Source: an uncultured bacterium
GTDB lineage: Bacteria; Patescibacteriota; Minisyncoccia; SW-4-49-11
DNA length: 64,000 nucleotides
NCBI GenBank assembly: GCA_937864235.1
Contig: CALMJI010000006.1
Location: forward strand, 113-64,112
Direction of reading: 5' to 3'
The position numbers and the translations under genes are program-made. The notes below the pieces were generated by a model, which had not been told where the DNA came from, ran no database searches, and saw nothing but the letters and a program-made list of their open reading frames with translations. Positions 2,691 to 62,185 of the stretch are shown in pieces; within the stretch, counting starts at the first letter, position 1, and every line of letters starts with the position of its first letter.

Positions 2691-3003
2691 TATCTTGATT
2701 TGAATTTCAGGATATGGTAAAATTTTTTAGTTGTTTTTCAGGAAACCTAAATAGATGGCAAAAGACAATCTTTTGGAAACATTGTCTGGCAGGTCAACAA
2801 GAAACAAAGAGCCCAGAGTATGCCCTACGGAAAACATACCTCTACCAGACACCCTCCCCACGAGATGTGGTAGGGGTACCCAACAATACCTCAAGACACT
2901 TGAACAAGGTCGTCCCGATGAGGGATAACCCCAATCAAAATACTCACACAAGGCCACCTCCCTCGAGCTGGTCTTTTTTCTTTACCTCCCTGTACTAGAG
3001 TAC

Positions 3004-3105
3004 ATTTCGTAGAGGCGACCTTTAAGTCGCCAGCTGTACTAAAATTCCACCTCCTATACTTCAGTTTGGGAGGGGACGGGGTGGAGTATTTTTACCCTCC
3101 TTCTA
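3004..3105. repeat. GC-rich mosaic hairpin repeat element, copy 1. Modules: ttcgtagaggcgacctttaagtcgcc, tacttcagtttgggagg, gacggggtggag.
   Basis: Roughly 50% GC in a roughly 30% GC background. It contains the hairpin ggcgac-ctttaa-gtcgcc and shares modules with copies at 3945, 8983, 42996, 61885 and others. Confidence 0.7.
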
Positions 3106-3122
3106 CACAAATAATCAAATTA

Positions 3123-3131
3123 TGCTATAAT
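3123..3131 (+). promoter_or_regulatory. Extended -10 TGCTATAAT for ORF 3164
   Basis: Motif lies 32 nt upstream of the ATG at 3164. Confidence 0.45.
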
Positions 3132-3163
3132 ATTACCGTCTAAGATGAATTAATTATCTCTGT

Positions 3164-3598
3164 ATGGATAGCCAAACTGCCCTACAAATTAATCAATGGA
3201 TAGATATAATTCATAATCCTAACTATTGGATTATTTTTTGGTTTATTGCCTTATATATTTTATTAGAGCCTAAACTTTTTTCAAATAAAAACACACTTTC
3301 AGATAATAAATCTACTAAAATTATAATTCATACTAAATTTTTAATTTTATTTTTTACCTTTAGTATAGCCCTATCTCAGAGCTTATTTGGAGGCTGTCTG
3401 ATTACCTCTATTCAGAATTACTTTGCTGTCAATTATCTAGGTCGTGAATATTGGTACCCTTATGGCTTAGTATTCCGCGAAAACTTTGACCCCCAATATT
3501 GGATTTATCTCAGATTATTTTATATAATACTGACAATATTATATGGAACTTGGATATATAAATATTATAGATTTGTGATGAAGAGCTGGGGGAAGTGA
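3164..3598 (+). CDS. Hypothetical integral membrane protein
   Basis: Several long hydrophobic/aromatic segments (IIFWFIALYILL, FLILFFTFSIAL, IYLRLFYIILTILYGTWIY). A promoter motif lies upstream. Confidence 0.5.
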   Translation: MDSQTALQINQWIDIIHNPNYWIIFWFIALYILLEPKLFSNKNTLSDNKSTKIIIHTKFLILFFTFSIALSQSLFGGCLITSIQNYFAVNYLGREYWYPYGLVFRENFDPQYWIYLRLFYIILTILYGTWIYKYYRFVMKSWGK

Positions 3599-3612
3599 AT
3601 TATATAAATTTA

Positions 3613-3621
3613 TGGTATAAT
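3613..3621 (+). promoter_or_regulatory. Extended -10 TGGTATAAT for ORF 3654
   Basis: Motif lies 32 nt upstream of the ATG at 3654. Confidence 0.45.
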
Positions 3622-3653
3622 TATATATATAAATAATTCAATAATTCTAATTT

Positions 3654-3914
3654 ATGTCAAATTTAAATCTAAAGCCTATCCCTATGTTATTATTTTGTCC
3701 AAATTGTGGAAAACAGCATATAGATGAACCAAATCTAGATATTGGGTGGACTAATCCAGATCATCGTAGTCATTTTTGTACTTTTTGTGGAACAATTTGG
3801 AGACCAGCTGATGTCCCAACAATGGGTGTAGCCAAAATCGAGACAAAAGGTAAAGCTGATACTTGGGATGTAAATTCTATAGACGAGACTATTGCTATTT
3901 CTAAGGGGAAATAA
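3654..3914 (+). CDS. Zinc-ribbon domain protein (hypothetical)
   Basis: Two CxxC pairs (CPNCGK ... CTFCG) typical of a zinc ribbon. Confidence 0.5.
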   Translation: MSNLNLKPIPMLLFCPNCGKQHIDEPNLDIGWTNPDHRSHFCTFCGTIWRPADVPTMGVAKIETKGKADTWDVNSIDETIAISKGK

Positions 3915-3944
3915 GTCATTCTATATAAATTTATTTTAGAGTAG

Positions 3945-4190
3945 ATGGGTGTGGGCATTCGTAGGGGCGCCCTTTCAGTCGCCCGATTGTCATCCTTTGG
4001 ACTAAAATTCCCCTCTTGAGGGGTGGCAGGTTTCCTGACGGGGTGGAGTGTTTTTAAACTTGAACTTCTGTCCTCCTCCGCCCCTGTGGGGCACCTCCCC
4101 CAAGGGAGGACAAAATACAATGCTCCTACCTGCCTTAGGTAGGCAAATGGAGACATAAAGCAGAGCCCTCCCCTTATTGCATTTTGACCC
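3945..4190. repeat. GC-rich mosaic hairpin repeat element, copy 2. Modules: cgtaggggcgccctttcagtcgcc, gacggggtggagtgttttt, cccccaagggaggacaaaatac, cctacctgccttaggtagg.
   Basis: Shares modules with copies 1, 4, 5, 8 and 11. It is made of several adjacent hairpins. Confidence 0.7.
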
Positions 4191-4230
4191 TACTTGGCAT
4201 ATAATATGAAAATTATATAAATATTATATT

Positions 4231-4797: not shown

Positions 4798-7379
4798 CCC
4801 CAATAGTCTTTGATCGCTGCTTCTACCTTAATCGGGATGGTGGCTTTATAAACCGATTCCATAATTTCTAGAATTTTATCTTTATATTGCTCAGCTTGTG
4901 TGGTTTTGACCTCAAAAACTAATTCATCGTGAACTTGTAAAATCATATAAATATCTTGTTTTTCTCCTAGATATTCATCGATTTTAATCATCGCTAATTT
5001 TATAATATCGGCTTGCAAGCCTTGAATTGGCATATTGACAGCTATTCTGTCCAATAAGGCCTGGTTGCGAGGGTTTCTAATATCTATGTTTGAAAGGTCT
5101 CTAATTCGTCCATATTCTGTCTGAGCATAACCATGCTTGCGAGCGAATTGCTTGAGAGATTCCATATAATCATTTAGCTCTGGATAGGCTTGACGATATT
5201 TATCTAAGAAAACTTGAGCTTCGGCTCTTTTAATTTTGAGATTTTGGGCTAGGCTAGTAGCACCCATCCCATAAAGAATTCCAAAATTTATTGTCTTAGC
5301 AAAGCTTCGCATTTCTTTGGTCACTTCTTCGGGGCTTACTCCATATACTCGCTGGGCTGTAGCGGTATGAAAGTCTATATTTTGTCTAAAAATCTCTAGC
5401 ATAGCCTGATCTTGAGATAAGTGAGCCGCTAGCCTCAACTCAATCTGAGAATAATCACAAATTAACAATGTCCAGTCCTCCCGTGCTACAAAACAATTTT
5501 TGATTTGCCTACCCAATTCACCTCTAGCAGGAATATTCTGTAAATTAGGATCCACTGAGGATAATCTACCGGTGGCGGCAATATTTTGCTGATAAGTGGT
5601 GTGTATTCTCCCCTGCTCATCCATCAGATTCGGCAGGCTATCTATATAGGTAGATTTGAGCTTAGCCACTTCTCGGTATTGTAAAATCAAGTCTACAATT
5701 TCGAATTCACCTCTCATAGATTCTAGAGCCTGAGCTGAAGTAGAGACTTGACCTCCATTGGTTTTCTTGACTCCTTTGACAGAAAGATTAAGTTTATTGA
5801 ATAAAATATCGGCCAATTGCTTCGGGGAATTGAGATTGAATTCCTCTCCCGCAATAGCATAAATATCTCTAGTCAAGGTAGTAATTTTATCCTCTACAAA
5901 AGTTTTAGTAGCTTGTAATTTTGACTCATCGAATAGCACTCCCATAGCTTCCATTTTGGCTAAAACTGGCAAAAGAGGCTTCTCGATTAAATTATAAACC
6001 TCCTCAATATGCAAAGCCTGCATTTTAGACAGAATCAACTGATATAATTGATGCAGAACCAATTCTGGCTGAGCAGAATTATAACCCACTCCATAGGCTC
6101 CACAGACCGCCTCCAGAGATAATTGCCTCTCTCCAGGGTTAATCAGATAAGCCATCAGAATCACATCTTGCAAATTAGCCCTGAGCTCAAAGGGATATAA
6201 TTTCCGTATAATTGGCTTAATATCAGCACAGATTATAGTCTGCTCGGAGCCTAGCAATGCTCTTAATTCCTTCTCGCTAACTTTAGACCTCTGACCCTTT
6301 GCATCAATGGCTATATAATCCTCATCTACCCCAGCCCAAATAGCTAGAGGGAAATTAGTTAATTGAGATAAATTATACAATTTACTCTCCTCAATAGCCT
6401 GTGTCTCTACAGCAGGAGTAGCAGGCTGTTGCCCCCAAAAACTAGTCTGGGACTTATGATTATTAGCTTTTTCTAATTGAGTATTAAGCTCTTTGACCAG
6501 GGAATAAAATTCAAAATGCTTAAAGATCTCCTTTGCCTTCTCAACTGGGAAAGTATAGTCGATAGAATCATTGACCACCTCCCCAATTGGAGCATCCGTG
6601 ATAATAGTAGCTAATTCCCGACTAAAGAAAGCTTGTTCTTTATTATTCTTGAGATTCTCAAATATAGATTTAGTCAGAGCATCTCTATCCTCTTTGGCAA
6701 TATCCTCAAACTTAGCATATTGATCTACAAATTTATAAATATTCTCCAGAGTTTCAAAACGATGCAATAAATTCACCGCTCGCAAATCTCCAATACCAGG
6801 AACCCCAGGAATATTATCTGAAGGATCCCCCTTTAACCCCTTAAAATCACAGACTTGATCTGGACGAATTTGATATTTGGCAATAACCGCTTCAGTATCA
6901 AAAATTACAGTGTCATTAATGCTTTTTCTCAATGTATAAACTGAAATCTGAGGTTTTACTAATTGCATAGTATCCATATCACCCGTCACAATAATCAGCT
7001 CATTGCTGGTCTTACTAGTCTGCTCAGCAATAGTACCAATAATATCATCAGCCTCATAGCCAGCTAATTCCAAAATCGGGATTTCAATAACTTCCAACAT
7101 TTCTTTGACCAAAGGTATCTGGTCATACAAATCCTGGTCCGCCGCCACTCGATTAGCCTTATAAGCCTCAAATTGATTATGCCGAAAAGTATCCCCCGCC
7201 ACATCAAAAGCCGCTAATACAATATCCGGCTTAATATCCTTAATAACTTTTAACAAAAGCTTAGCATAACCATACACTGCATTAACCATCACCCCATCAG
7301 CAGTAGTAAAAGGAGGCAAAGCATGATAAGCCCTGTGAATCACCGCATTACTATCTAGAATTACAATTTTTTTCTTCAT
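4794..7379 (-). CDS. polA: DNA polymerase I
   Basis: 5'-3' exonuclease N-terminal domain; polymerase motif A DYSQIELRLAAHLS, motif B RSFAKTINFGILYGMGATSLAQ, motif C VHDELVFE; 861 aa. Confidence 0.95.
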   Translation of the reverse strand: MKKKIVILDSNAVIHRAYHALPPFTTADGVMVNAVYGYAKLLLKVIKDIKPDIVLAAFDVAGDTFRHNQFEAYKANRVAADQDLYDQIPLVKEMLEVIEIPILELAGYEADDIIGTIAEQTSKTSNELIIVTGDMDTMQLVKPQISVYTLRKSINDTVIFDTEAVIAKYQIRPDQVCDFKGLKGDPSDNIPGVPGIGDLRAVNLLHRFETLENIYKFVDQYAKFEDIAKEDRDALTKSIFENLKNNKEQAFFSRELATIITDAPIGEVVNDSIDYTFPVEKAKEIFKHFEFYSLVKELNTQLEKANNHKSQTSFWGQQPATPAVETQAIEESKLYNLSQLTNFPLAIWAGVDEDYIAIDAKGQRSKVSEKELRALLGSEQTIICADIKPIIRKLYPFELRANLQDVILMAYLINPGERQLSLEAVCGAYGVGYNSAQPELVLHQLYQLILSKMQALHIEEVYNLIEKPLLPVLAKMEAMGVLFDESKLQATKTFVEDKITTLTRDIYAIAGEEFNLNSPKQLADILFNKLNLSVKGVKKTNGGQVSTSAQALESMRGEFEIVDLILQYREVAKLKSTYIDSLPNLMDEQGRIHTTYQQNIAATGRLSSVDPNLQNIPARGELGRQIKNCFVAREDWTLLICDYSQIELRLAAHLSQDQAMLEIFRQNIDFHTATAQRVYGVSPEEVTKEMRSFAKTINFGILYGMGATSLAQNLKIKRAEAQVFLDKYRQAYPELNDYMESLKQFARKHGYAQTEYGRIRDLSNIDIRNPRNQALLDRIAVNMPIQGLQADIIKLAMIKIDEYLGEKQDIYMILQVHDELVFEVKTTQAEQYKDKILEIMESVYKATIPIKVEAAIKDYWG

Positions 7380-7387
7380 ACTTTTTC

Positions 7388-7396
7388 ATTATAGCA
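7388..7396 (-). promoter_or_regulatory. Extended -10 (TGCTATAAT on minus) only 8 nt from the polA ATG, implying a leaderless polA mRNA
   Basis: The reverse complement reads tatgctataatgaaaaagtATG, with 8 nt between TATAAT and the start codon. Confidence 0.5.
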
Positions 7397-7412
7397 TATT
7401 TTGGGAGAAATA

Positions 7413-7441
7413 TAGACAAAATTCTTAAAATATGATATAAG
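7413..7441 (+). promoter_or_regulatory. Sigma70-like promoter (-35 TAGACA, 17-nt spacer, -10 TATAAG with upstream TGA) for ORF 7468. This is copy 1 of a duplicated ~46-bp promoter element.
   Basis: The 46 bp 7411-7456 and 9107-9153 are about 93% identical (atagacaaaatt[c/a]ttaaaatatgatataaggttattgt[c/t]ctata). Confidence 0.5.
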
Positions 7442-7467
7442 GTTATTGTCCTATACGGAGAACTTCC

Positions 7468-7854
7468 GTGAAAAACCCTTTCAACATTTTCTGCCTAATA
7501 ATCGCTTCAACATTAATTGGTGGCACTATATATGGAATTACAGAAATATTCAAGGAAGAAAAAACATACCTTCCAGTTGAATATGACCGCTTCATATACT
7601 TCCCATGGCATGCAGGGAAAGGATTGACACCTGACCCCACCAAAAAAGAAGCTTTTTTTACTGGCTCCAAAGAGAAATTTTTGGAGGATTGTAGTCGAAT
7701 ATGTACTTTAAGCCATCAAAATTATATCCCTGCAGGGACAACAAAGCCGGTTTACATTCAAAATCTCTATGAGCTTTTGAATGTAAACCCCTACAATCTA
7801 AAAATAACCCTTGATGGGTACTATATATACAATCCATTACCCCCAACCCATTGA
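7468..7854 (+). CDS. Hypothetical protein of 128 aa with an N-terminal signal/TM segment (GTG start per the ORF track)
   Basis: Hydrophobic N-terminus FNIFCLIIASTLIGGTIYGI. It is bracketed by a recognisable promoter and an intrinsic terminator. Confidence 0.45.
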   Translation: MKNPFNIFCLIIASTLIGGTIYGITEIFKEEKTYLPVEYDRFIYFPWHAGKGLTPDPTKKEAFFTGSKEKFLEDCSRICTLSHQNYIPAGTTKPVYIQNLYELLNVNPYNLKITLDGYYIYNPLPPTH

Positions 7855-7874
7855 CCACAGCCCCCATATCTCCA

Positions 7875-7906
7875 GACTCTGTATCACTGCAGAGTCTTTT
7901 CTTTAC
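7875..7906 (+). terminator. Rho-independent terminator (gactctg-tatcactg-cagagtc followed by TTTTCTTT), copy 1
   Basis: 7-bp GC-containing stem, 8-nt loop, T-run. It is near-identical to the copy at 9286-9318 and is followed by the shared tail ttactcaaaaatac. Confidence 0.6.
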
Positions 7907-7942
7907 TCAAAAATACTCTCAGAAATTTAATTTTATATATAC

Positions 7943-8929
7943 TTACTTTTTCTTAAATTTACTTTCTAGTTGATTTATAGTATCTAGATAAGATTGTTCC
8001 ACTGGGCTGAGGGTTTTTTGCTGATATTTTTTATATTCATCTTGAGCTTTTTGAATTGCTTCTTGATTACTAATTTTACCTGAATTTTGCAAGATTTCTT
8101 CCCCTGTAGCCAACAAAATACTATCTAAATGGTCTGCCCAATCTTGCATCTTCATTGGGACTTGTCTTTCTGCTTGTCTTTCAGCAAAGTCTAGATATCC
8201 TGAGACTATTTGACCCAATGCTCTTAATTCTTTTTCATCTAGATAATTTTTAGCTATTGAGATATCTTGTAATTGTGGTTTATTACCAGTAAAGGTAGTA
8301 AGTCCCATAAATTCTTTTTCAGCATCAGCTCGATTATAAATCACTTCAGCTGCAGTTTGTTTATGTACTGCATAATGTATTTTATTCTGGACTTTTTTGA
8401 AAAATTCAATTGAAGTTTTATTATTAGCATCATAATCTATACTTGTTGCATAGATATCTAATATCTGTCTATAAAAAACTTTCTCACTAGCTCGAATATC
8501 TCGTATACGGGTTAGCAATTCTTTCCAATAATTACCTCCGCCTAAATTTTTGAGCCTCTCATCATCCATCGTGAAGCCTTTGAGTATATATTCTTTTAAC
8601 CTTTGAGTTGCCCAAATTCTAAATTGAGTGGCTATTTTACTATTAACTCTATATCCTACAGCGATAATCATATCTAGATTATAATAACCTGTATTATACT
8701 TTTTACCGTCTCTAGCAGTTATCCGGAAATTCCGGAATACTTGATTTTTACTTAATTCCTGAGTTTTATACATATTTTGTATATGTTCACTAATAGTTCT
8801 GACATCAACTTCAAAAAGTTCTGCCATTAATTTTTGAGATAACCAAATCGTCTCATCCTCTATAAAAACATTCAATTTTACCGCTCCATTGGAATCTGTA
8901 TATAATATAAAATTGTTTTGCTCAGTCAT
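7943..8929 (-). CDS. rhuM: RhuM-family (virulence-protein RhuM-like) protein
   Basis: 328 aa. Conserved central region ...KIHYAVHKQTAAEVIYNRADAEKEFMGLTTF... matches the Virulence_RhuM family, which is often found on genomic islands. Confidence 0.7.
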   Translation of the reverse strand: MTEQNNFILYTDSNGAVKLNVFIEDETIWLSQKLMAELFEVDVRTISEHIQNMYKTQELSKNQVFRNFRITARDGKKYNTGYYNLDMIIAVGYRVNSKIATQFRIWATQRLKEYILKGFTMDDERLKNLGGGNYWKELLTRIRDIRASEKVFYRQILDIYATSIDYDANNKTSIEFFKKVQNKIHYAVHKQTAAEVIYNRADAEKEFMGLTTFTGNKPQLQDISIAKNYLDEKELRALGQIVSGYLDFAERQAERQVPMKMQDWADHLDSILLATGEEILQNSGKISNQEAIQKAQDEYKKYQQKTLSPVEQSYLDTINQLESKFKKK

Positions 8930-8952
8930 GTTTCTGATTATTATATATTTTT

Positions 8953-8961
8953 ATTATAGCA
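8953..8961 (-). promoter_or_regulatory. Extended -10 (TGCTATAAT on minus) for rhuM, 23 nt upstream of the ATG
   Basis: The reverse complement reads atatgctataataaaaatatataataatcagaaacATG. Confidence 0.45.
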
Positions 8962-8982
8962 TATTTTAGGAAAAATATGGAC

Positions 8983-9105
8983 TTTCGTAGCGGAGGCTTT
9001 AAGTCCCTCCATTTTATGTAGAGTCGGCGACCCCGCCGACATAGATTTTCGTAGAGGAGACCTTTCAGTTGCCCGTCCAGTGATATACTCAATTTTAGTT
9101 ATTTA
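8983..9105. repeat. GC-rich mosaic hairpin repeat element, copy 3, inserted within the duplicated promoter element and flanked by 8-bp direct repeats atatggac / atatagac
   Basis: Copy 1 of the promoter region (7401-7420) is continuous (gagaaatatagacaaaatt). In copy 2 the same sequence is interrupted after atatggac by 123 bp of GC-rich hairpin modules (tttcgtagcggaggctttaagtccctcc, gtcggcgaccccgccgac, ttcgtagaggagacctttcagttgcc) and resumes at atatagacaaaatt. Confidence 0.65.
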
Positions 9106-9108
9106 ATA

Positions 9109-9137
9109 TAGACAAAATTATTAAAATATGATATAAG
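9109..9137 (+). promoter_or_regulatory. Sigma70-like promoter, copy 2 (-35 TAGACA, 17-nt spacer, -10 TATAAG)
   Basis: Duplicate of the 7413-7441 element. Confidence 0.5.
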
Positions 9138-9162
9138 GTTATTGTTCTATATATGCTAGACC

Positions 9163-9276
9163 ATGACCATGTTTACTAGAAAGTTTGGAAAGTTTATACG
9201 ATATTGCGGTAATAAACCCCTTGCCCTAGGGGGGCCAATTATTGCTTTGTACGCATTGTATAATACAATATTTTGA
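9163..9276 (+). CDS. Hypothetical 37-aa peptide (MTMFTRKFGKFIRYCGNKPLALGGPIIALYALYNTIF), speculative
   Basis: ATG-to-TGA ORF positioned exactly between promoter copy 2 and terminator copy 2. It has a hydrophobic C-terminal half and is below the ORF-track cutoff. Confidence 0.25.
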   Translation: MTMFTRKFGKFIRYCGNKPLALGGPIIALYALYNTIF

Positions 9277-9285
9277 ATTTCTATC

Positions 9286-9318
9286 GACTCTGCATCACTG
9301 CAGAGTCTTTTATTTACT
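9286..9318 (+). terminator. Rho-independent terminator (gactctg-catcactg-cagagtc followed by TTTTATTT), copy 2
   Basis: Near-identical to 7875-7906. Confidence 0.6.
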
Positions 9319-9349
9319 CAAAAATACCCTTCCCCAATCAAACAATATA

Positions 9350-9450
9350 ACGGGTGACTGAGGGGTCGACCCTACGAGAGGGGCAACGAATCCACCCCCG
9401 CCTTTCAGGCACCCCCCTCCGAAGGGGGACAAATTAACTCCCCCATCCTT
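9350..9450. repeat. GC-rich mosaic hairpin repeat element, copy 4. Modules: gggtcgaccc, cccctccgaagggggacaaatta.
   Basis: Contains the palindromes ggggtcgacccc and cctccgaaggggg. It shares the ...aagg(g/a)ggacaa... module with 4100, 30326, 52122 and 62140. Confidence 0.65.
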
Positions 9451-9468
9451 GAAAATAAGCTAATTTTA

Positions 9469-10038: not shown

Positions 10039-10041
10039 AAT

Positions 10042-17720: not shown

Positions 17721-17932
17721 ATTTTAATTGATTTACATTAACTATGTATTACTATCTCCCACTATCCTCTATGTCTACGATGTATCTCATCTTATTCATT
17801 TGGAATTGGACATAAGGATAAGCTAAAAAGTCAGCTTATAGATGATTTACAAAACTTTAAAGAAGCTATCTCTAAATTTCAAAAAGAATTTTTAAGATAA
17901 TCAAAAAACTAAACCACTATCACTCTTAATAC

Positions 17933-18283: not shown

Positions 18284-18353
18284 TACCCTCTCATTATACC
18301 ACACTCCCCCTTACCCTTCCAAAAAGCCGGTTTTGAGGAGGTGGAGGTCTTTG
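18284..18353 (-). promoter_or_regulatory. Promoter element (-35 TTGGAA, -10 TGGTATAAT on minus) upstream of csaA. This is copy A of a duplicated ~70-bp segment that also carries a remnant of the sufD 3' end (…HLLKTGFLEG*).
   Basis: Roughly 88% identical over about 70 bp to 21867-21934. Its reverse complement encodes YKDLHLLKTGFLEG-stop, matching the real sufD C-terminus HLLKNGFLEG-stop. Confidence 0.6.
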
Positions 18354-21866: not shown

Positions 21867-21934
21867 ACCCTCTCATTATACCACACTCCCCCTACCCTTC
21901 CAAAAAACCATTTTTGAGTAGGTGGATGGCTTTG
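21867..21934 (-). promoter_or_regulatory. Promoter element copy B (-35 TTGGAA, 17-nt spacer, -10 TGGTATAAT on minus) lying 8 nt from the methyltransferase ATG (leaderless). It overlaps the genuine sufD 3' end.
   Basis: The reverse complement reads ttggaagggtagggggagtgtggtataatgagagggtATG. Segment 21895-21915 encodes the sufD C-terminus LKNGFLEG. Confidence 0.6.
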
Positions 21935-30142: not shown

Positions 30143-30242
30143 CATTTATAAAAAATTCATAATCTTACTCTATAATTACTTATACATCATATACTTTTGC
30201 ATTAGATTACTGAAGAAAAATTATAAAAAAGAGTGCTTAATT

Positions 30243-30350
30243 TTGTCTCCCTTAGGAGGGGGAAGCCTGAAAGGCGGGGGTGGATAAAACATAAACTAGA
30301 ACTCTATCCACCTCCGGCACTCCGTGCCACCTCCTCCAAAGGAGGACAAT
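30243..30350. repeat. GC-rich mosaic hairpin repeat element, copy 5. Modules: cccttaggaggg, ccacctccggcactccgtgccacctcc, cctccaaaggaggacaatta.
   Basis: Nested palindromes. It shares the ggcac..gtgccggaggtgga module with copy 8 (52060) and copy 11 (62040), and the ctatccacc module with copy 11 (62110). Confidence 0.7.
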
Positions 30351-30448
30351 TACTATCCAATTTATGATATTAGTCTAGTAATGTATACAATCCCTTTTGT
30401 CGATGATTACCTCATCTCGTACACCCTATACACAAAAACTAAAATATA

Positions 30449-30457
30449 TGTTATAAT
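30449..30457 (+). promoter_or_regulatory. Extended -10 TGTTATAAT for rnhA
   Basis: Lies 21 nt upstream of the ATG at 30479. Confidence 0.45.
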
Positions 30458-40545: not shown

Positions 40546-40659
40546 AAATTAAAAATATATTACCTTAGTAGTTGTAATAACTATATCATAGCTTGGATTA
40601 TATTGCAAGAGGTTGAGGTGATTATGAATTTGTAGGGTTGACCTTATGTCTCTTGTATT

Positions 40660-40770
40660 CTGTCCTCCTTAGGAGGAGCTTTAAGTCCCTCCTATATTTA
40701 TTTAGGAGGGGGTGGCAGTCAGGCCGGAGGTGGATAGAGTTTTAGTTTTTATTCTATCTACCTTCCCAAA
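40660..40770. repeat. GC-rich mosaic hairpin repeat element, copy 6. Modules: ctgtcctccttaggaggagctttaagtccctcc, ggagggggtggcagtcaggccggaggtggatagag.
   Basis: Shares the gctttaagtccctcc module with 8998 and 61928, and ggaggtggata with 52065 and 62050. Confidence 0.7.
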
Positions 40771-40821
40771 AAAACCAAAAAGCCCTCCATCTAAGGAGAG
40801 CTTTTGGTAGTGGCTAAAAGA

Positions 40822-42896: not shown

Positions 42897-42995
42897 TTTT
42901 AAATGAGCGAGTGGACAGTAGCTTTATAGCATATATATATATTAGTCAAATTATTGTATAAAATTATGAAGGGATAAATATAGGAGGATATAAAA

Positions 42996-43125
42996 CACAC
43001 TCCACCCCGTCAGTCAAGCCTACCACCCCCTCTCAAACTAAAGTATGAGAGGGACTTAAAGCCCTCAATTTATCTCCCGTAGGGAGAGAGGTGAATTTTA
43101 AACCACTACCGCTCCTTGCTTTTTT
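42996..43125. repeat. GC-rich mosaic hairpin repeat element, copy 7 (inverted orientation of the gacggggtggag, tacttcagtttgggagg and gggctttaagtccc modules)
   Basis: cactccaccccgtc, cctctcaaactaaagtatgagagg and gggacttaaagccctc are reverse complements of modules in copies 1 and 11. Confidence 0.7.
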
Positions 43126-51491: not shown

Positions 51492-51826
51492 TTATTCTTG
51501 AACTACTTCTACATTTAACACTCTTAATTCTCTATCAACTATGATAAAGCCAATTTGAAATATACTATTATTTTTCACACCCTCAAACCAATCTATACTT
51601 ATGAATCTAGGCAAAGATGAGGGCTCATTTTCAATAAGTAAAAGATCTATTTTTCTTCTTCCATGAGCATTTTGTTTAATAAATACATATTTACCGGTAA
51701 TACTTGGGGTTGCTTCTATAACTACAGACTTAATCCGCGGGTTGCTTCTATAACTACAGACTTAATCCGCAAAGGCCATGCAGCAACTAATTTCAAATCT
51801 TCAAAAGAAAAAGTTTGTTCAGCCAT
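51492..51826 (-). pseudogene. Disrupted ~100-aa ORF (MAEQTFSFEDLKLVAAWPLRIKSVVIEATPSITGKYVFIKQNAHGRRKIDLLLIENEPSSLPRFISIDWFEGVKNNSIFQIGFIIVDRELRVLNVEVVQE) interrupted by a perfect 32-bp tandem duplication (51707-51738 duplicated at 51739-51770)
   Basis: Deleting one 32-bp copy restores a single continuous ATG-to-TAA frame. With both copies the frame hits a stop inside copy 1. Protein family not recognised. Confidence 0.5.
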
Positions 51827-51994
51827 ACCAAATACCTCAGGATAAAAATTTAGCCCTAGATCTCTCTAGAGCCTGGACAAACAAAAACATATCATATTTT
51901 ACCGCTTTCGTCTATATCTGTGTAAGTATAAACCCTCTACTAAAAACATACCCACATCGTAGGGCTTTTATCACCTGTACTTTATAAAGACTAT

Positions 51995-52140
51995 TTATTG
52001 CGGGCGACAAAAGGTCGCCCATACAAGAAAGCACTGTCCTCCTTTGGAGGAGGTGGCACGAAGTGCCGGAGGTGGATTAAATTTAATACTACATCTTATC
52101 CAACCTCTCCCTACGGGTACTCCCTCCAAAGGGAGACAAA
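51995..52140. repeat. GC-rich mosaic hairpin repeat element, copy 8. Modules: gggcgacaaaaggtcgccc, ctgtcctcctttggaggaggtggcacgaagtgccggaggtggatt, ctccctccaaagggagacaaa.
   Basis: Shares modules with copies 5, 9 and 11. Confidence 0.7.
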
Positions 52141-52185
52141 AACACAATTTCGCACAAACTCACACATCGCTCCGACCTTCAAGTC

Positions 52186-52317: not shown

Positions 52318-52417
52318 ATAAGGTAAACCTATTGTACCCTATTTTGGAGAATTTAGCAAGACAAAATAATCATAAATTTATTTTTATATATTACCCCAAT
52401 GTTCCACGTAGAACATT

Positions 52418-52804
52418 TTAGTCAAGACCTTCTAGAATATTAGGGTAAAACTTTATCCAACTTTTTTTACAACAATTATCCACAATACAGGTGATCGCAT
52501 CGATAGTAATATCCATATCGGTGTATTTCTGCTTCTGGACATATAATTGAGCTCCTAGCTTGAGATGACTAACTTTCCTCGGTGTAATATTATATATCGG
52601 AAAATCCAAGTTATCCCCAAGTTTTCCACATTTATACACAGTCTTTACCTCTATAATGTGAATAACTCTATCCTTAGTAGCCACAATATCCAATTCTGAT
52701 AGCTTACCCAGTCTCACATTTTGATCTATAATTTCAAAGCCTTTAGATATTAAAAGTTTAGCCGCCAACCTCTCGCCCAAACTACCTTTATTTTTTGTAT
52801 CCAT
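52418..52804 (-). CDS. yraN: YraN-family (UPF0102) endonuclease-like protein
   Basis: GSLGERLAAKLLISKGFEIIDQN...GELDIVA...IHIIEVKT is the UPF0102 PD-(D/E)xK pattern. Confidence 0.7.
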   Translation of the reverse strand: MDTKNKGSLGERLAAKLLISKGFEIIDQNVRLGKLSELDIVATKDRVIHIIEVKTVYKCGKLGDNLDFPIYNITPRKVSHLKLGAQLYVQKQKYTDMDITIDAITCIVDNCCKKSWIKFYPNILEGLD

Positions 52805-54044
52805 ATCTTTTAGTATAGCATTCTATAGAAAAAATTACTACCAATATAAAAACCCCTATGGCTCCGATTTCACTTAATAACAAAAGAAATATATTATGTA
52901 CTGGCTCATACTGCCATATTTCTCTATTATCTGACAAATTACCAACATATTGCCCCAACCCAACGCCAAGCCATAAATTAGCATATATCATATTGGCTGC
53001 ATCTTGTATATAAACCCCTCTTTTTACAATAGTTTCTAAAATTTGCTTATATGGCAAAATCCATAAAAACAAAATTCCAGCTATGGCAATAGAATTTATT
53101 ATCAATCTTGGTAAAGATTTTAATTTATTTTGAAATTGTTCCACGTGGAACATTGATTTTTTATATACTATTGTCAAATAAATAAAATCTAGGAATAAAA
53201 GTAGTGCCAGAGCTATTTTTGAGAAACTAAGTATTATTATAATATGGAGAATAAAAATAAAAATTTGACGAAGAATTTGGGAAAATTCTATATTTTTACT
53301 AGATATTAACTGGAGTCCGGTAAATAAACTCAATACAAGAGCCTGTATAGAAGTCAAAATATAGTGATCCACAAACCCTAAAAACACAAGCGACACAATG
53401 TATACCCAGATAGCTAGCTTTTTCTTAAATTCTTTAGCATATAGTAATATCAAGGCTAAAACTCCAGCAAAAGCCAAGATATTTGGATGCGGAAAGGTGC
53501 CATATCCTCGAATGATCACATTGTCCAATATACTAACTTTTGCGACTCCAGCAATCTCAGGAGATAAAGTAGGCTCTACTACTACTGGTAAGCCTGTATT
53601 GCTTTGGAACCATACTTGCGTTATCACAATTAGAGCCTGCCCCAGCATACCAATAATAAATCCTTTAGCAATATAGCTAATTTCTTTTTGGAAGGGTTTA
53701 AAACTCCTTATATACCAAGTTATCCCCACCAACAAATATACTCTCAAACCCCAAAACCAACTTATCAAAGGATATTTAGCCCATATCAACTGAAAAAATA
53801 TCCAAAGAAGCAAAGTTATCCATAACTTATCCACAATTTTTTGACTGCTAAGTGGAAATCTTTTGGTTTGCCAGAATAGATGAGCAAATATCAAAAATAA
53901 AACCAGATCTAGACTATGTAGATATATAGTCGTATAAGGCAAATTTATATTTCTAATTGTATAACTAAAGAGAGTAGTTCTTATTAAAAAAGGAAAGCCT
54001 ACCCCTATTATGATATATATAAATAATTTAATCTTATTCCACAT
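52788..54044 (-). CDS. O-antigen ligase / Wzy_C-family polytopic membrane protein (putative)
   Basis: About 10-12 TM helices with a large periplasmic-type loop, typical of O-antigen ligase-like glycan polymerases/ligases. The assignment rests on topology only. Confidence 0.45.
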   Translation of the reverse strand: MWNKIKLFIYIIIGVGFPFLIRTTLFSYTIRNINLPYTTIYLHSLDLVLFLIFAHLFWQTKRFPLSSQKIVDKLWITLLLWIFFQLIWAKYPLISWFWGLRVYLLVGITWYIRSFKPFQKEISYIAKGFIIGMLGQALIVITQVWFQSNTGLPVVVEPTLSPEIAGVAKVSILDNVIIRGYGTFPHPNILAFAGVLALILLYAKEFKKKLAIWVYIVSLVFLGFVDHYILTSIQALVLSLFTGLQLISSKNIEFSQILRQIFIFILHIIIILSFSKIALALLLFLDFIYLTIVYKKSMFHVEQFQNKLKSLPRLIINSIAIAGILFLWILPYKQILETIVKRGVYIQDAANMIYANLWLGVGLGQYVGNLSDNREIWQYEPVHNIFLLLLSEIGAIGVFILVVIFSIECYTKRYGYKK

Positions 54045-54212
54045 TTCTTTTCTTTGTATATATTCAGTCCTTGCCAGTAATCAGAGAATAATATATATTT
54101 ATATATATGTGTGTGTATTTAATATAATCATATCATATTACATTTTGTGGATAACTTGTGTAAAAACTCTATTTATCCCCAAGTTTTCCACAATTATTAT
54201 TAAGTTTTATTT

Positions 54213-55199: not shown

Positions 55200-55249
55200 T
55201 TATAAATTATAAATTATAAATTGAGAATTAAGAATTCTGTAGCTTGCAT

Positions 55250-55455
55250 TTTGTCTCCCTTTGGAGGGAGTACCCGTAATATACTGAAAGTCTGGAAAAG
55301 AGGTAGGGAAAACGGGAGTTTTCCCGTGGAGGAAGGTTGGGAAACCGTGAGTTTTCACAGGAGCAAATCCTATTTGAGACCGGGGGAGTGTGGATAGAAG
55401 GTAGATTGAGAGGACATATTACTGCTCGTAGTAGCGACCTTTCAGTCGCCTGCGT
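55250..55455. repeat. GC-rich mosaic hairpin repeat element, copy 9. Modules: ttgtctccctttggagggag, gggaaaacgggagttttcccg, cgtagtagcgacctttcagtcgcc. It is preceded by a (tataaat)x3 tandem repeat.
   Basis: Shares ggcgacctttcagtcgcc with copies 1, 2 and 3, and the (gtctcc)ctttggaggga module with copy 8. Confidence 0.7.
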
Positions 55456-55533
55456 CTTTATACCTAAATTTTTACACCCTATACAAACAACGTCTCAAAA
55501 GACTTGCAATTTAATCCATAATCTGTTATTTTA

Positions 55534-55819: not shown

Positions 55820-55880
55820 ATAAGTAGCGGAGAGTTTATCCCTCCGCTACAAAAAATTCATCTCCCACACAATGTGGGTT
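55820..55880. terminator. Terminator region between the convergent ORF 55534-55794 and typA: hairpin gtagcgga-gagtttatccc-tccgctac, then cccaca-caa-tgtggg followed by TTTTTTATTATTT
   Basis: Two stem-loops. The second has a classic T-run on the plus strand. Confidence 0.5.
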
Positions 55881-57814: not shown

Positions 57815-57915
57815 TTGACAAGTATAGAAATGTATTGTAAAATAATATTCTGCTTAAGCAAGTAAAGACAAATTATACGTATATCTAAAAGGGAGCGCTT
57901 AGCTCCTTTTGTATT
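57815..57915 (+). ncRNA. Candidate small non-coding transcript: consensus promoter (-35 TTGACA 57815-57820, 17-nt spacer, -10 TAAAAT 57838-57843), about 60 nt with no ORF, then an intrinsic terminator (ggagc-gctta-gctcc plus T-run, 57891-57915)
   Basis: Promoter and terminator are read directly from the sequence. No start codon or ORF lies between them. This is an inference only. Confidence 0.3.
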
Positions 57916-58058
57916 TATTCAATGTTCCACGTGGAACATTTTTTAATCCGCCTACCAGCAATTAAACATTGGGTGGAGAGGAATTTAGCTAGCACCCCCA
58001 TCTTAGACAAAAAACCTAAAATACTCTATACTAAATCTAAACTTATAATCTTAAATTT

Positions 58059-59611: not shown

Positions 59612-59701
59612 TATATAAACTATTATTCTAATTTATTGTATCAAATTGATTCTTAAAATTAAAGTGATTATACCACTAATAACAAAACTGGTTTTTGAAA
59701 A

Positions 59702-60757
59702 TTAGTCTTCTTTTAACTCATTTAATAATCTTTTGATATTCTTTTTAATATATCTATTTAGATTTTCCATACCAATGTCAAAATTGTCATCACTAACAAT
59801 AGCTTGTATTCGTTCTAATTTTTGAACTAATTCCTCTATATTTACTTCTTTTTCTTTTACCTCATCTGTGCCACGATTATATACCTTATAACCTTGAGCC
59901 CTTTTGACATCTCCAGCAAGAGATCTTATAAGATTCATAACTTCAGTTTCAATTGTAGATTCTACTAAATTTCCTATAATTTCTCTGGTATCTACTCCTG
60001 AAGCAATAAAATTATCTTTATTTTTAGATATAATTTGAGCAATTGAGTCTACAAAAGACTCTATGTCTACTTTCTCTACAGCCTCTATCTTTAATTTAAG
60101 TTCAGTTAATAAATTTCCTAAATCTTCTGTCGGGACTACACTCATCAAAATATTTTCTTGAGGTAAAAGAACTTCTGGCTCTGCAAGCTTTCTTTTTGCT
60201 TTCATTTGATCATATATATTTTCGCCTTCTCTTCTTATATTTACTTTTTGTGAAGATTCCAAACTATTAGTAGCTCTCCAAAAATCATCTCTTGTCTGAA
60301 TTAAAGTATAATCAATATTATATCTTTCACATAAATTTCGAATTTGCGATTGAAGTTCTGCTAATTCAGTTTTATATTGCTCAATATTTCTTCTCCTGTT
60401 TACAATGTCGCTCTCTTCATAAATTGCAAACTGTTTTCTGCCCGACACATATTTTGAAGAATATCCTGAGATACTTTTAGTTTCATCATCAATTTCAACA
60501 TCAGTATGTACCGCATAACCTATATGTTGCTCCTCTGGTACAGACATAATAATCATTCGTCCAGTCTCTCCGTCTTCAATTTCAGTTTTACTTTTACTAC
60601 CTTTTCTTTTAGATTCATCTGTAGCCCATTCAAAAGAATATATCAAGTCAGCTGATACAGTAGCTCTGCCTTCTTCGGCTTTAAAACCCTCATTTTGAAT
60701 TTTTTCAGCATCTTGTACTGAGCTAGTACCATGAGTGATGAACTCTGGAGACTTCAT
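59702..60757 (-). CDS. Hypothetical protein (351 aa) with a globular N-terminus followed by a coiled-coil/acidic region
   Basis: No motif was recognised with confidence. N-terminus: FITHGTSSVQDAEKIQNEGF...YSFEWATDE. Confidence 0.4.
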   Translation of the reverse strand: MKSPEFITHGTSSVQDAEKIQNEGFKAEEGRATVSADLIYSFEWATDESKRKGSKSKTEIEDGETGRMIIMSVPEEQHIGYAVHTDVEIDDETKSISGYSSKYVSGRKQFAIYEESDIVNRRRNIEQYKTELAELQSQIRNLCERYNIDYTLIQTRDDFWRATNSLESSQKVNIRREGENIYDQMKAKRKLAEPEVLLPQENILMSVVPTEDLGNLLTELKLKIEAVEKVDIESFVDSIAQIISKNKDNFIASGVDTREIIGNLVESTIETEVMNLIRSLAGDVKRAQGYKVYNRGTDEVKEKEVNIEELVQKLERIQAIVSDDNFDIGMENLNRYIKKNIKRLLNELKED

Positions 60758-60791
60758 ATCAAATTAAAAATTAAATTTTGTTCATTTACTG

Positions 60792-60864
60792 TGGACCTGA
60801 CTGGGATCGAACCAGCCACCTCCTCGGTGCAAACGAGGCGCTCTACCATATGAGCTACAGGCCC
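60792..60864 (-). tRNA. tRNA-Ala (anticodon TGC), with the G3:U70 identity pair
   Basis: Minus-strand fold: acceptor GGGCCTG pairs with CAGGTCC (G3-U70); the anticodon stem CCTCG pairs with CGAGG around loop TTTGCAC; the T arm is CTGG-TTCGATC-CCAG. Confidence 0.9.
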
Positions 60865-60909
60865 TTGTGTAATTACAGAGTAGAGTATATCAAATTTGGT
60901 TTATTTATG

Positions 60910-61015
60910 CAAGGGGAGTGTAAATTGTAGGGTGAAAGGGTGTTTTCGTAGTAGAGGGTTTATCCCTCCAATTCCATAGATAAAACCTTTCAGTCGCCCC
61001 TACAAATACACGGCA
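60910..61015. repeat. GC-rich mosaic hairpin repeat element, copy 10. Modules: ttcgtagtagagggtttatccctcc, cctttcagtcgcccc.
   Basis: Shares ttcgtag-N-gg and cctttcagtcgcc with copies 1, 2, 3 and 9. Confidence 0.65.
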
Positions 61016-61051
61016 TCCCTACTTGCTCTATAAGACACTTCTTTTTACACC

Positions 61052-61471
61052 TTATTCTTCGTGCTCTGTCTCATCAGCCTCGGCTTTGGTCAAATGCACA
61101 GTGCCAAAAGGGTGTTCTGGTTCTGCATAAATAGAATATAATTGCAAAGGCTCAGAGCCGATATTAATTATATTATGATACATCTCAGCAGGGACATGCA
61201 CAGAATACCCATCTTCAATATCTTTTACAAAATTCAAATCATCCTTTTTTTGCCCCATATAGACCTTTCCTTGCCCTCGGTCTACTCTTATGAACTGTTC
61301 TATATTATGATGGGCCTCAAGCCCAATTTCTCCACCCACAGGGATAGACATCACTGTCACTTGCATCTTATCTCCCGTCCAAATAGTCTGGCGATAGGAT
61401 TGATTCTCGATTACCAACTCTTCTAGATTAAATACAGCTGGTTGTTTTCCCTTATCTTCAATCATTTTCAT
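61052..61471 (-). CDS. Cupin-domain protein
   Basis: Cupin motifs G(X)5HXH-like (GLEAHHNIEQFIRVDRGQG) and a second motif ...SVHVPAEMYHNIINIG; 139 aa. Confidence 0.65.
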   Translation of the reverse strand: MKMIEDKGKQPAVFNLEELVIENQSYRQTIWTGDKMQVTVMSIPVGGEIGLEAHHNIEQFIRVDRGQGKVYMGQKKDDLNFVKDIEDGYSVHVPAEMYHNIINIGSEPLQLYSIYAEPEHPFGTVHLTKAEADETEHEE

Positions 61472-61884
61472 AGTAGTAATGATTAATATTACACTTGCAT
61501 TATATACCTTGAGAGGGTATTTTGTCTATGTGGGGGTAATTCTTATTGACATTTTAATTATGCTTTGGCATACTATTAATATTCACTTGCACCTTCAGTT
61601 ATGATCTTTGATGAAGAGTATGTTATCAGTGTTTTCAGAGATTTATTTGAAAGATGTTATATACTCGAAATGGAACCTCGCAAAATTGAATATTCGTCAG
61701 AAAAAACATATCTAGAAGCATATGAAGCTTGGTATCATAGCGTCTATTTACCAAGTATGGGGTGAATGCCACAATCAAATCTCAGACCAGCCCAGTGGCT
61801 GGTTTTTTCATTGATAGGGATATAATTTTTAAAATAGGAGACTTCGCTGATATTAGTTTTTTAGTAAAAGATTTACATCTACCT

Positions 61885-62185
61885 TTCGCAGGGGCGGCGA
61901 CCTTTGTTCTAAAAATTCCCCTCGTTGAGGGCTTTAAGTCCCTCCCATACTTCAGTTTGGGAGGTGGTGGATTCCTGCTATGTTTATATAGCGGGAAGAC
62001 GGGGTGGAGGTGTTTTTGTCCTCCTTTGGAGGAGGTGGTCACTTTCGTATTTATACGGGAGTGACCGGAGGTGGATAATAAGCAGTTTATATTTCGCTTA
62101 AAAATTAAAACTCTATCCACCCTCCCCCTGCGGGTACTCCCTCCAAAGGGAGACAAATATAGGTGGTAAAAGCTCGCCCCCTATA
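61885..62185. repeat. GC-rich mosaic hairpin repeat element, copy 11, the largest array at about 300 bp. It contains essentially every module: ggcggcgaccttt, gggctttaagtccctccc, tacttcagtttgggagg, gacggggtggagg, gtcctcctttggaggaggtgg, gaccggaggtggata, ctctatccacc, ctccctccaaagggagacaaat.
   Basis: Concatenation of modules seen singly or in pairs at the other ten sites. Confidence 0.75.

Follow-up and report, generated by a model that had tools for sequence, protein, structure and literature searches.

GC-rich hairpin islands of probable IS481-type transposon ancestry in the intergenic DNA of a Paceibacteria genome

Hairpin islands between the genes of the window

The 64,000-nt stretch analysed here (contig CALMJI010000006.1, positions 113 to 64,112; hereafter the window) comes from an uncultured bacterium of the Candidate Phyla Radiation (CPR) and carries a housekeeping gene content, including PolA, EF-P, RuvC, YebC, G6PD, MutS, S15, BipA and RNase H, together with eight tRNAs recognised by ARAGORN. 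Between these genes lie eleven islands of 116-296 bp, named A to K, whose composition and origin are the subject of this work. The genes that flank them are housekeeping genes, and a GC-rich patch is present in all the long intergenic regions of the window but two. An initial annotation had viewed the islands as dispersed, mobile or once-mobile elements of the MITE (miniature inverted-repeat transposable element) or REP (repetitive extragenic palindromic) kind, with about 50% GC in a genome of about 30% GC. GC-richer patches they are, with 60-nt peaks of 0.47-0.70, but these figures need correction, as the GC content of the window is 34.5% and that of whole islands ranges from 32 to 51%.

The eleven sites proved to be repeat islands with common short GC-rich palindromic modules, far above what chance would produce. 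When the islands were compared with the window by blastn-short, 96 of the 125 matches (77%) fell within islands, which represent about 3% of the sequence, and the 29 matches outside were at chance level (E of about 0.1-1). Every module named in the annotation was recovered by these pairwise matches in both orientations. Comparison with dinucleotide shuffles gave 4 occurrences of GACGGGGTGGAG for 0.06 expected, 4 exact occurrences of GCTTTAAGTCCCTC for 0.5 expected even with 2 mismatches, 4 of the 26-nt TTCGTAG-hairpin module for 0 expected, and 7 of the motif GGRGGTGGAT for 0.11 expected, six of the seven inside islands. The open reading frames (ORFs) called inside islands are spurious, as suspected, but ORF 2714-2998, which the annotation had counted among them, falls outside the islands, in a unique GC-rich segment conserved in a relative.

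The basic component is a hairpin unit composed of TTTTGTC, a 6-bp pyrimidine/purine hairpin (Y6-TNGG-R6), a variable hairpin and the tail GGRGGTGGAT. The first hairpin of the unit was found 136 times in the window and 55 loci of relatives, versus 7 in shuffles, and 122 of the 136 carry one of five fully complementary stem variants (CTCCCT/AGGGAG, 64; CCTCCT/AGGAGG, 37; CCTCCC/GGGAGG, 13; CCCCCT/AGGGGG, 7; CCCTCT/AGAGGG, 1), which are compensatory changes. The variable hairpin extends from a smallest form, CCCGTAGGG, to a largest one with a multi-hairpin insert of about 105 nt (island I), and this long-form unit has at least 15 copies in relatives with 82-93% identity. Neighbouring units form 28 tail-to-tail inverted pairs, versus 5, 3 and 8 for the other three arrangements. 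The inverted doublets span 104-143 nt around an AT-rich spacer, fold into branched hairpins (z = -3.8 to -7.4) and are present in islands E, H and K and, partially, in F. Head hairpins, of the form TTCGTAG-R-stem-CTTTMAGT-stem', are accompanied by the linker CTAAAATTCC, a CCCCTC-TTGA-GAGGGG hairpin, one more variable hairpin and GACGGGGTGGAGTRTTTT, and these modules follow one another in a common order in islands A, B, G (reversed) and K, as they do in seven related genomes. Small hairpins are also found inserted within the loops of other hairpins. The members of the family in the window are the following.

Island A, 2995-3110, plus strand: TTCGTAG-head hairpin (3005-3031), linker ACTAAAATTCC (3038-3048), hairpin CCTCCTATACTTCAGTTTGGGAGG (3050-3073) and GACGGGGTGGAG (3075-3086).
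Island B, 3940-4200, plus strand: module order as in A, with TTCGTAG hairpin (3957-3985), linker, CCCCTCTTGAGGGG and GACGGGGTGGAG (4037-4048), followed by a reverse-oriented hairpin unit (4066-4120) and then a CCTACCTGCC/GGTAGG hairpin.
Left direct repeat of island C, 8974-8982, no strand assigned: AATATGGAC.
Island C, 8983-9104, plus strand: GTCGGCG/CGCCGAC hairpin flanked on either side by TTTCGTAG-head hairpins in tandem (8983-9010 and 9047-9073).
Right direct repeat of island C, 9105-9113, no strand assigned: AATATAGAC.
Island D, 9325-9460, minus strand: reverse TTCGTAG-type hairpin (9352-9381) and reverse hairpin unit (9390-9433).
Solo terminal inverted repeat of the TGAA end type, 17769-17798, minus strand: TGAATAAGATGAGATACATCGTAGACATAG; nhmmer match to the terminal-repeat profile with E = 8e-9.
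Island E, 30218-30423, plus strand: type-B MITE without its left end, covering profile positions 68-270 of 270 (nhmmer E = 5e-63), with an inverted unit doublet (30240-30350), an AT-rich arm and a TGTA-type terminal repeat (30396-30423) whose tip is at 30423.
Promoter abutted by island E, 30424-30457, plus strand: CCCTA (30424-30428), -35 box TACACA (30429-30434), 17-nt spacer and -10 box TATAAT (30452-30457).
Island F, 40625-40800, plus strand: hairpin unit from 40661 with inserted GCTTTAAGTCCCTCC and TTAGGAGGGGG hairpins and tail GGAGGTGGATAG (40726-40737), then a spacer and a truncated reverse partner that leaves the doublet partial.
Island G, 42970-43125, minus strand: module order of A and K reversed, with GACGGGGTGGAG (43000-43011) and hairpins (43023-43068).
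Island H, 51990-52145, plus strand: GGGCGAC/GTCGCCC hairpin (52000-52020) and inverted unit doublet (52035-52141).
Island I, 55240-55470, plus strand: long-form unit (55248-55400) with the variable hairpin expanded by about 105 nt, and TTCGTAG-type hairpin (55424-55450).
Small GTAG-head hairpin, 55824-55850, no strand assigned: GTAGCGGAG...CTCCGCTAC, adjoining the BipA terminator.
Island J, 60900-61020, plus strand: two TTCGTAG/CCATAG-head hairpins (60945-60970 and 60972-60999), like the subterminal arm of the type-C elements described below.
Island K, 61885-62180, plus strand: degenerate TTCGCAG head, linker, GAGGGCTTTAAGTCCCTC, CCTCCCATACTTCAGTTTGGGAGG, CCTGCTAT/ATAGCGGG hairpin, GACGGGGTGGAG (61998-62009) and inverted doublet (62012-62160).

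Island K is the largest array and contains nearly all the modules, as annotated, and the solo terminal repeat at 17769-17798 and the hairpin at 55824-55850 are pieces of the family that the earlier list had missed. Island A is placed between a T-run terminator and the promoter of a gene that starts at 3164, island B upstream of the EF-P promoter, and island F in the gap that separates the upstream gene's terminator from the S15 promoter. Island D runs right up to the -35 box of the yebC promoter (TTGAAA, 9449), and the promoter abutted by island E precedes the RNase H gene, which starts at 30479. Islands G and K lie between divergent and convergent genes, respectively, island H downstream of the tRNA-Leu terminator, and island J adjoins tRNA-Ala.

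Island C splits the second copy of a duplicated promoter segment (7378-7455 compared with 8943-8982 plus 9105-9151), as had been proposed. The uninterrupted copy contains a single AATATAGAC at 7409-7417, and the direct repeat seen on both sides of the island is real, although it measures 9 bp with one mismatch and not 8 bp. A small ORF, with a promoter and a terminator, is contained in the first copy of the duplicated segment (7378-7919). The second copy (8943-9330), which carries island C, has an internal deletion. A RhuM-family gene (7943-8929) sits between the two copies and looks like a recent insertion or rearrangement, because it is absent at the orthologous site of the relative locus L006.

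The unique segment that adjoins island A (2700-2990) has about 50% GC, is C/A-rich on the plus strand and is not repeated, so it was discarded as a member of the family. It shows 82% identity to a relative (within the L006 1081-2682 block), its best frame is just 62% conserved at the amino-acid level, and it therefore looks non-coding. A promoter-like site on the plus strand (2695-2723) and a T-run at about 2975-2990 delimit a sequence that might encode a small RNA (sRNA) of about 260 nt; no Rfam match was obtained for the segment, and its fold signal is weak (z = -1.5).

Spread, turnover and the question of an RNA or protein-binding role

The distribution of the family was addressed in a species-representative genome collection, to which the window's own genome does not belong, by means of the 19-nt module CCCTCCWAAGGGAGACAAA. 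This module matches 67 loci, about 55 of which come from nine Paceibacteria/Parcubacteria metagenome-assembled genomes (MAGs), several of them freshwater, and the other 12 or so are scattered single matches, in line with the roughly 9 estimated by chance. The family was also found in freshwater metagenomes. The modules are thus dispersed well beyond the window, genome-wide in at least nine related species, with a density of roughly one hairpin unit per 3-7 kb. Viral contigs searched with two modules gave no match, and a phage origin was discarded.

The closest representative to the window genome is JBEAQD, with 88-94% identity across genes; two of the loci compared below (L006 and L009) come from it and a third one (L007) from CAZYEN. 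Comparison at orthologous intergenic sites, as recommended in the annotation, revealed that island content differs at A, B, D, F, G and I. In the L006 locus, islands A and B are absent or replaced, the site of A being just about 60 nt of AT-rich DNA and B missing from the corresponding site. The yebC site of the same locus contains a different three-unit array, so that the promoter-proximal edge of island D alone is common to both genomes. Unrelated AT-rich DNA occupies the site of F in L007 and a different array, which includes a long-form unit, the site of G, while an element of the E type stands in the place of island I in L009. Island H is kept, with about 91% conservation at the orthologous L009 site, above that of the neighbouring intergenic DNA, and at least seven other loci contain copies of its doublet delimited in the same way. 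Copies of island E were found at non-orthologous sites in L009 and L125, and similarity to the L065 copy ends exactly at ...CTCATCTCGTACA (30423). An orthologous site filled by a complete element in one genome and empty in another was not found among these loci; L125, 97% identical in a neighbouring gene, differs there in gene content.

Exchange between copies has left traces as well. An element closely related to island E carries one extra unit, set between two ATCCACC motifs, which points to recombination at the shared tail motif. In addition, the right flank of island I (55465-55485, TTTTTACACCCTATACAAAC) repeats the junction of island E at 30416-30436 including its host-side bases (CGTACACCCTATACACAAA), which hints at the copying of stretches longer than the element between sites, by recombination and not by transposition.

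Repetition of the units could reflect function and not mobility, namely if they are functional structured RNAs, or cis-acting RNA or DNA structures under selection, such as sRNAs of the whalefall-1 type, insulators or terminators, or stabilisers of mRNA 3' ends. This explanation, which we regard as improbable, would fit with the compensatory stem variants, with the G.T pairs outnumbering C.A pairs on the TGTC strand (15 versus 5), with the near-invariant single-stranded stretches that the long-form insert keeps across species, with the conservation of island H between two species, and with the location of islands between terminators and promoters. It would also fit with weak matches to the Rfam motif whalefall-1 (RF01762), which has the same layout of hairpin, variable part and tail; these reach 22.4 bits at 62119-62156 and 18.7 bits at 4070-4113, both on the minus strand, for a curated cut-off of 37. 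However, the units have no orientation bias relative to flanking genes (34 co-oriented and 30 anti-oriented; 19 and 17 for solo units), which makes a strand-specific cis-RNA role unlikely and led to its rejection, and close relatives differ in content at orthologous sites. At curated cut-offs no Rfam family matches the units, whether the search covers the window or the 144 kb analysed from relatives. The only window matches at those cut-offs are tRNAs, so the description of the islands as dispersed repeats and not known structured RNA genes was borne out, and the outcome of all these searches (the whole window at curated cut-offs and at E <= 5, the 144 kb of relatives at curated cut-offs) was limited to tRNAs, rRNA and the sub-threshold whalefall-1 matches. 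The alignment fold of the long-form unit includes 33 pairs in near-invariant sequence with a covariation term close to zero (+0.42), and this unit was dismissed as a candidate structured RNA. Finally, the elements within which units are found possess terminal repeats and target duplications, as detailed in the next section.

More specific explanations were discarded too. Intrinsic terminators are not a satisfactory description of the islands, as most of their hairpins are devoid of a T-run, the genes have their own ordinary terminators nearby and orientation is unbiased. A tRNA-like origin was considered on account of the CTTTAAGT-loop hairpins, which resemble the T-arm and the D/anticodon arm, and a search for GCTTTAAGTCCCTC with 2 mismatches picks up the T-arm of tRNA-Leu; ARAGORN finds nothing in the islands. 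Mimicry of Shine-Dalgarno or anti-Shine-Dalgarno sequences, the 16S 3' end or the DnaA box by the GGAGGTGGAT tail offered nothing beyond resemblance. A strand-independent role of the islands, as insulators or protein-binding sites, is conceivable.

In this regard, the tail GGRGGTGGATA and its inverted partner TATCCACC could be a DNA-level site for a protein, either DnaA-box-like (TTATCCACA) or for a nucleoid protein or recombinase, in which case the islands would be clusters of binding sites. The enrichment of GGRGGTGGAT in islands goes in this direction, and so does the agreement of TTATCCACC and GGTGGATAA with the DnaA box in 8 of 9 positions, the two being set opposite one another with AT-rich spacers of 17-37 nt in between. 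The argument is one of resemblance, however, the perfect DnaA boxes of the window are located elsewhere, and the motif pairs with its own inverted copy in the doublet stem, which is enough to explain the conservation of the tail. As it also leaves terminal repeats and target duplications unexplained, a protein site is a very remote prospect, clearly less credible than an RNA role.

Terminal-repeat-bounded elements in relatives and their insertion next to promoters

The ends of the elements were defined by aligning the paralogous doublets of one genome (JBIKVS) with 170-nt flanks. On either side, similarity runs past the doublet and stops in inverted repeats some 30 nt long, TGTAYTAGATGAGATGATCGTAGACAA ... 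TTGTCTACGATGTTTCTCATCTTTTTCA. A profile of these terminal repeats identified 154 ends across loci, arranged as inward-facing pairs throughout related genomes, and the same ends were found in 66 further metagenome loci fetched by the terminal-repeat pattern. Identical pentamers abut both tips in 12 of 23 unique end pairs and match at 4 of 5 positions in 3 more, compared with 0.4% in mismatched end pairs, while shifted registers gave no match. The elements thus have TG...CA tips and are flanked by target-site duplications of 5 bp, and the alignment of copies called for in the initial annotation did yield ends and duplications in relatives.

Relatives contain 28 complete terminal-repeat-bounded elements of 232-505 bp, in which one end starts TGTAYGAG and the other TGAAWAAG. 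Three types of interior were distinguished. Types A and B enclose a doublet with differing AT-rich arms, and in type C the subterminal repeats that immediately follow the terminal repeat inward are TTCGTAG-head hairpins, with the core TCGTAGA common to both. Consequently, all the module kinds of the window occur inside terminal-repeat-bounded elements. In quantitative terms, the window islands have 22-89% of their length in common with the interiors of the 28 elements, versus 0% for control segments. Island C is like the subterminal arm of type-C elements, without a terminal inverted repeat. In the metagenome locus L110, at about 540-600, two elements follow each other end to end with 5 nt in between (TGAA-type tip, GATTT, TGTA-type tip), an arrangement that looks like an insertion beside an existing element end.

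An autonomous partner of these elements is present at L087 146-1302. It is 1157 bp long, bears both end types with TGTA and TGAA tips and the 5-bp direct repeat TTAAT, and encodes a 342-aa ORF with helix-turn-helix (HTH) and rve DDE domains (Pfam matches rve, rve_3 and HTH). The best NCBIfam match of the ORF is IS481 (E = 1e-52; 179 bits, below the curated cut-off of 224), followed by IS3 (1e-32). Within L087 146-1311, the transposase ORF crosses the right terminal repeat and stops outside the element. Its TGA combines the final base of the 5-bp duplication with the two bases that open the abutted -35-like TTGAAC, so that the target site supplies the stop codon. A partial transposase copy (residues 1-201, 89% identity) was found in L095, and C-terminal fragments of 27-69 residues adjoin the TGTA-type end in the Paceibacterota MAG L029 and in six metagenome loci (L072, L075, L077, L110 and L129, and more weakly L102 and L131). 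This is the pattern that would be expected of deletion derivatives becoming MITEs.

The position of the elements relative to promoters is regular. Outside the TGTA-type end the sequence reads NNNNN-TTGAC(A/T)AAA, about 17 nt and TATAAT, a promoter that points away from the element. A sigma-70-like -35 hexamer is found at an offset of exactly 5 in 25 of 39 unique TGTA-type end flanks, with 0-2 at any other offset, whereas the TGAA-type end has no more than 3 at any offset. A looser end filter gave 29 flanks with a promoter at offset 5, and in 21 of them a co-oriented ORF starts within 200 nt. In the window, the tip of island E is located 5 nt from the -35 box, which is the geometry of the TGTA-type ends of relatives. 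Because spacers vary between copies and the duplication lies between tip and -35 box, the promoters are those of the host rather than part of the element. Toward the tip, the target consensus reads TTTTGTCAA, which resembles the subterminal motif TTTTGTCGA of the element and suggests, at the level of motif likeness, that the transposase recognises a target similar to its own end. Promoter recognition may rely on mimicry of TTTTGTCGA by the -35/A-tract TTGACAAAA or, alternatively, on contact with promoter-bound RNA polymerase. No published report of an insertion abutting a -35 box was found.

These results fit with the idea, which we consider probable, that the islands represent copies of non-coding selfish elements, pieces of them and mosaics produced by recombination, from a lineage-specific family in Paceibacteria with an IS481-type MITE origin. 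An IS481-type DDE transposase, supplied in trans, would move MITEs of 230-505 bp by recognising terminal repeats of about 30 bp (TGWAYRAGATGAG...TCGTMGACAA, with TG...CA tips), making 5-bp target duplications and setting the TGTA-type end exactly 5 bp before a -35 hexamer. As insertion would take place 5 bp upstream of this hexamer, the stretch from a terminator to the next promoter would constitute a safe landing site, among the few that a compact genome offers between its genes, in which elements pile up. Once there, they would lose their ends and swap modules by recombination at shared motifs such as GGTGGAT, giving rise to mosaic islands. We infer that the islands devoid of ends descend from terminal-repeat-bounded elements, and any effect of their hairpins on the host is hypothetical. 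The proposal can be extended to a fuller version, in which an IS481-type transposase integrates both insertion sequence (IS) and MITEs 5 bp upstream of -35 boxes in a fixed orientation, hairpin doublets persist as insulators against read-through, and whalefall-1 corresponds to the core of the element. This version is speculative and in our opinion rather doubtful as a whole; the 5-nt phasing is the only part of it that is observed.

Several facts weigh against an origin of the islands in IS481-type MITEs. Profile searches of the window gave just two significant terminal repeats, the right end of island E (30396-30423) and the solo end at 17769-17798, which is the remnant of an element to judge by its sequence; the likeness to terminal repeats perceived by eye at islands A, B and J (TGTACTAGAG...TTCGTAGAG) was unsupported by the profile and was abandoned. 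In the genome loci of relatives, 64% of units have no terminal repeat within 450 nt. The match of islands H, K, F, B and D to the element profiles is limited to the doublet core, and the TGTC...GACA boundaries of doublets stay sharp in three contexts, whether type-A arms, type-B arms or no arms surround them, which means that doublets may spread on their own by another route, such as another enzyme, recombination or gene conversion between dispersed copies. Island C was put forward in the annotation as a case of target-site duplication, and there is indeed a direct repeat, but its 9 bp and the absence of terminal repeats depart from the 5 bp and TG...CA ends of the family. Islands D, F and G abut -35 boxes at 0-1 nt and not at 5. 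A transposase gene was found neither in the 64-kb window nor in 408 kb of relatives' genome loci, except for the L029 fragment, and the autonomous copy comes from a 2-kb metagenome contig to which no taxon is assigned. The possibility of a transposase adjoining the islands was discarded, given their housekeeping neighbours and the lack of multi-copy ORFs in relatives' loci.

In view of these facts, units and doublets might instead be an independent REP/REPIN-like family, copied by a separate enzyme (for example a RAYT-type tyrosine transposase) or by hairpin-templated recombination, that entered IS481-derived MITEs later on by sharing the same intergenic niche. The 28 tail-to-tail pairs do resemble REPINs, and doublet boundaries are identical across flanking contexts and at sites without terminal repeats, far from which most units of the relatives are found. 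Furthermore, the TTCGTAG head and its hairpin recall the GTAG and palindrome of REPs, and the insertion of small hairpins in the loops of others points the same way. On the other hand, no target duplications were seen flanking bare doublets, nor was the insertion of a bare doublet found with a clean empty site, and no multi-copy ORFs lie near elements in relatives' loci. A phmmer search for a RAYT (Y1/HUH) gene with Escherichia coli RayT as the single query, covering about 470 kb of six-frame ORFs from the window and the 55 loci of relatives, whose genomes are partly sampled, returned nothing below E = 0.1 (best E, 0.16). The TTCGTAG hairpins of type-C elements sit inside IS481-type terminal repeats and share TCGTAGA with them, which ties these heads to an IS481-type transposon rather than to a RAYT. 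An independent family of this kind is unlikely, yet it deserves more credit than a structured RNA. The MITE/REP-like nature put forward in the annotation was corroborated by the terminal repeats, the 5-bp duplications, the IS481-like partner and the turnover of sites in relatives.

The window displays other features, observed independently of the islands. An exact tandem duplication of a 32-nt unit, GGGTTGCTTCTATAACTACAGACTTAATCCGC, is present in two copies at 51707-51770 and is unmatched in the aligned L009 region. A near-perfect palindrome of about 20 bp, AATGTTCCACGTGGAACATT, has three intergenic copies (52384-52419, 53121-53156 and 57907-57942, one of which reads CACGTAG) and looks like a candidate operator for a dimeric regulator. 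A cluster of DnaA-box-like sites extends over 52476-54184, with perfect TTATCCACA boxes at 52476, 53827 and 54146 (minus strand) and relaxed ones at 52622, 52632, 52657 (minus), 54157 (minus) and 54184; as there is no GC-skew switch at this position, it is probably not the replication origin. Finally, a promoter/leader repeat of about 70 nt (18284-18353 and 21866-21934, 85-88% identity), which includes GGAGGTGGAGG and, on the minus strand, an extended -10 box, precedes two different genes and is kept in a close metagenome relative (L125 5978-6036).

Relation to known systems and significance

REP, REPIN and BIME sequences of Proteobacteria are short GC-rich extragenic palindromes that form inverted doublets and mosaic intergenic clusters and have a GTAG head beside the hairpin. 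The family described here has in common with them the inverted doublet as recurrent unit, the mosaics of alternating orientation and the GTAG-containing head. It differs in that no RAYT was found, GTAG heads are subterminal repeats of a DDE transposon, a single-stranded tail is conserved and there is no sequence similarity. Modular GC-richer hairpin repeats in AT-rich intergenic DNA are also represented by the BOX elements of Streptococcus pneumoniae and the mobile GC clusters of yeast mitochondria, which, like the islands, consist of scattered hairpin modules of variable content; unlike the present family, they belong to unrelated hosts, are unrelated in sequence and have no known link with IS481-type transposases or promoter phasing.

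The IS-derived MITEs of bacteria, such as Correia/NEMIS of Neisseria and MITEAba12 of Acinetobacter, offer a further likeness, being short, non-coding, multi-copy, intergenic and able to form stable hairpins, with terminal inverted repeats, target duplications and ends shared with an autonomous IS that gives the transposase in trans. What sets the present elements apart is an IS481-like parent, TG...CA tips, a 5-bp duplication and a fixed orientation 5 bp from the -35 box, as well as a GC-rich inverted doublet interior that is found also without terminal repeats, and a CPR host. The published precedent for the insertion geometry is the ISAba32 subgroup of the IS1202 family, which has IS481/IS3-related transposases, TGT termini and 5-6-bp direct repeats, and inserts abutting XerCD sites at a distance that equals the direct repeat in length (5-6 bp), with tandem IS insertions reported at the same kind of site (bioRxiv 10.1101/2022.12.17.520857). 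The target is a XerCD site for ISAba32 and a -35 hexamer here. IS1202 encodes a polypeptide of about 54 kDa, compared with the 342 aa of the partner identified here, and no MITE derivatives with hairpin-doublet cores have been described for the ISAba32/IS1202 group.

Whalefall-1, known only from uncultivated bacteria, was judged an RNA by its authors (Weinberg et al. 2010, PMC2864571). It shares with the units a pyrimidine/purine hairpin with a UUGG-type loop, a variable insert and a purine-rich tail (for example AGGGUGAGGAC), and it has been read as a free-standing RNA, whereas the units are inverted pairs inside transposon-like elements. The likeness is only a lead; if real, it would suggest that the motif is repeat DNA of this kind.

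The genomes of CPR bacteria are very small and streamlined, and little mobile DNA is usually expected in them. The family is one of MITE/REP-like selfish intergenic repeats, a known kind of element but a new family, in a lineage for which no described repeat or MITE family was found in the searchable literature. What makes it unusual is insertion phased to -35 boxes, seen in relatives and at a single site of the window. In a streamlined CPR lineage, a single repeat family fills nearly all the long intergenic regions, about 3% of the window, and accounts for the spurious ORF calls in islands, and at least one orphan Rfam motif may turn out to be repeat DNA. The phasing offers a case from nature in which a simple DDE transposase targets safe sites next to promoters, and a candidate tool for promoter-proximal insertion. 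Since the ends of elements point to genuine promoters in organisms not amenable to culture, they are also usable as an aid to annotation.

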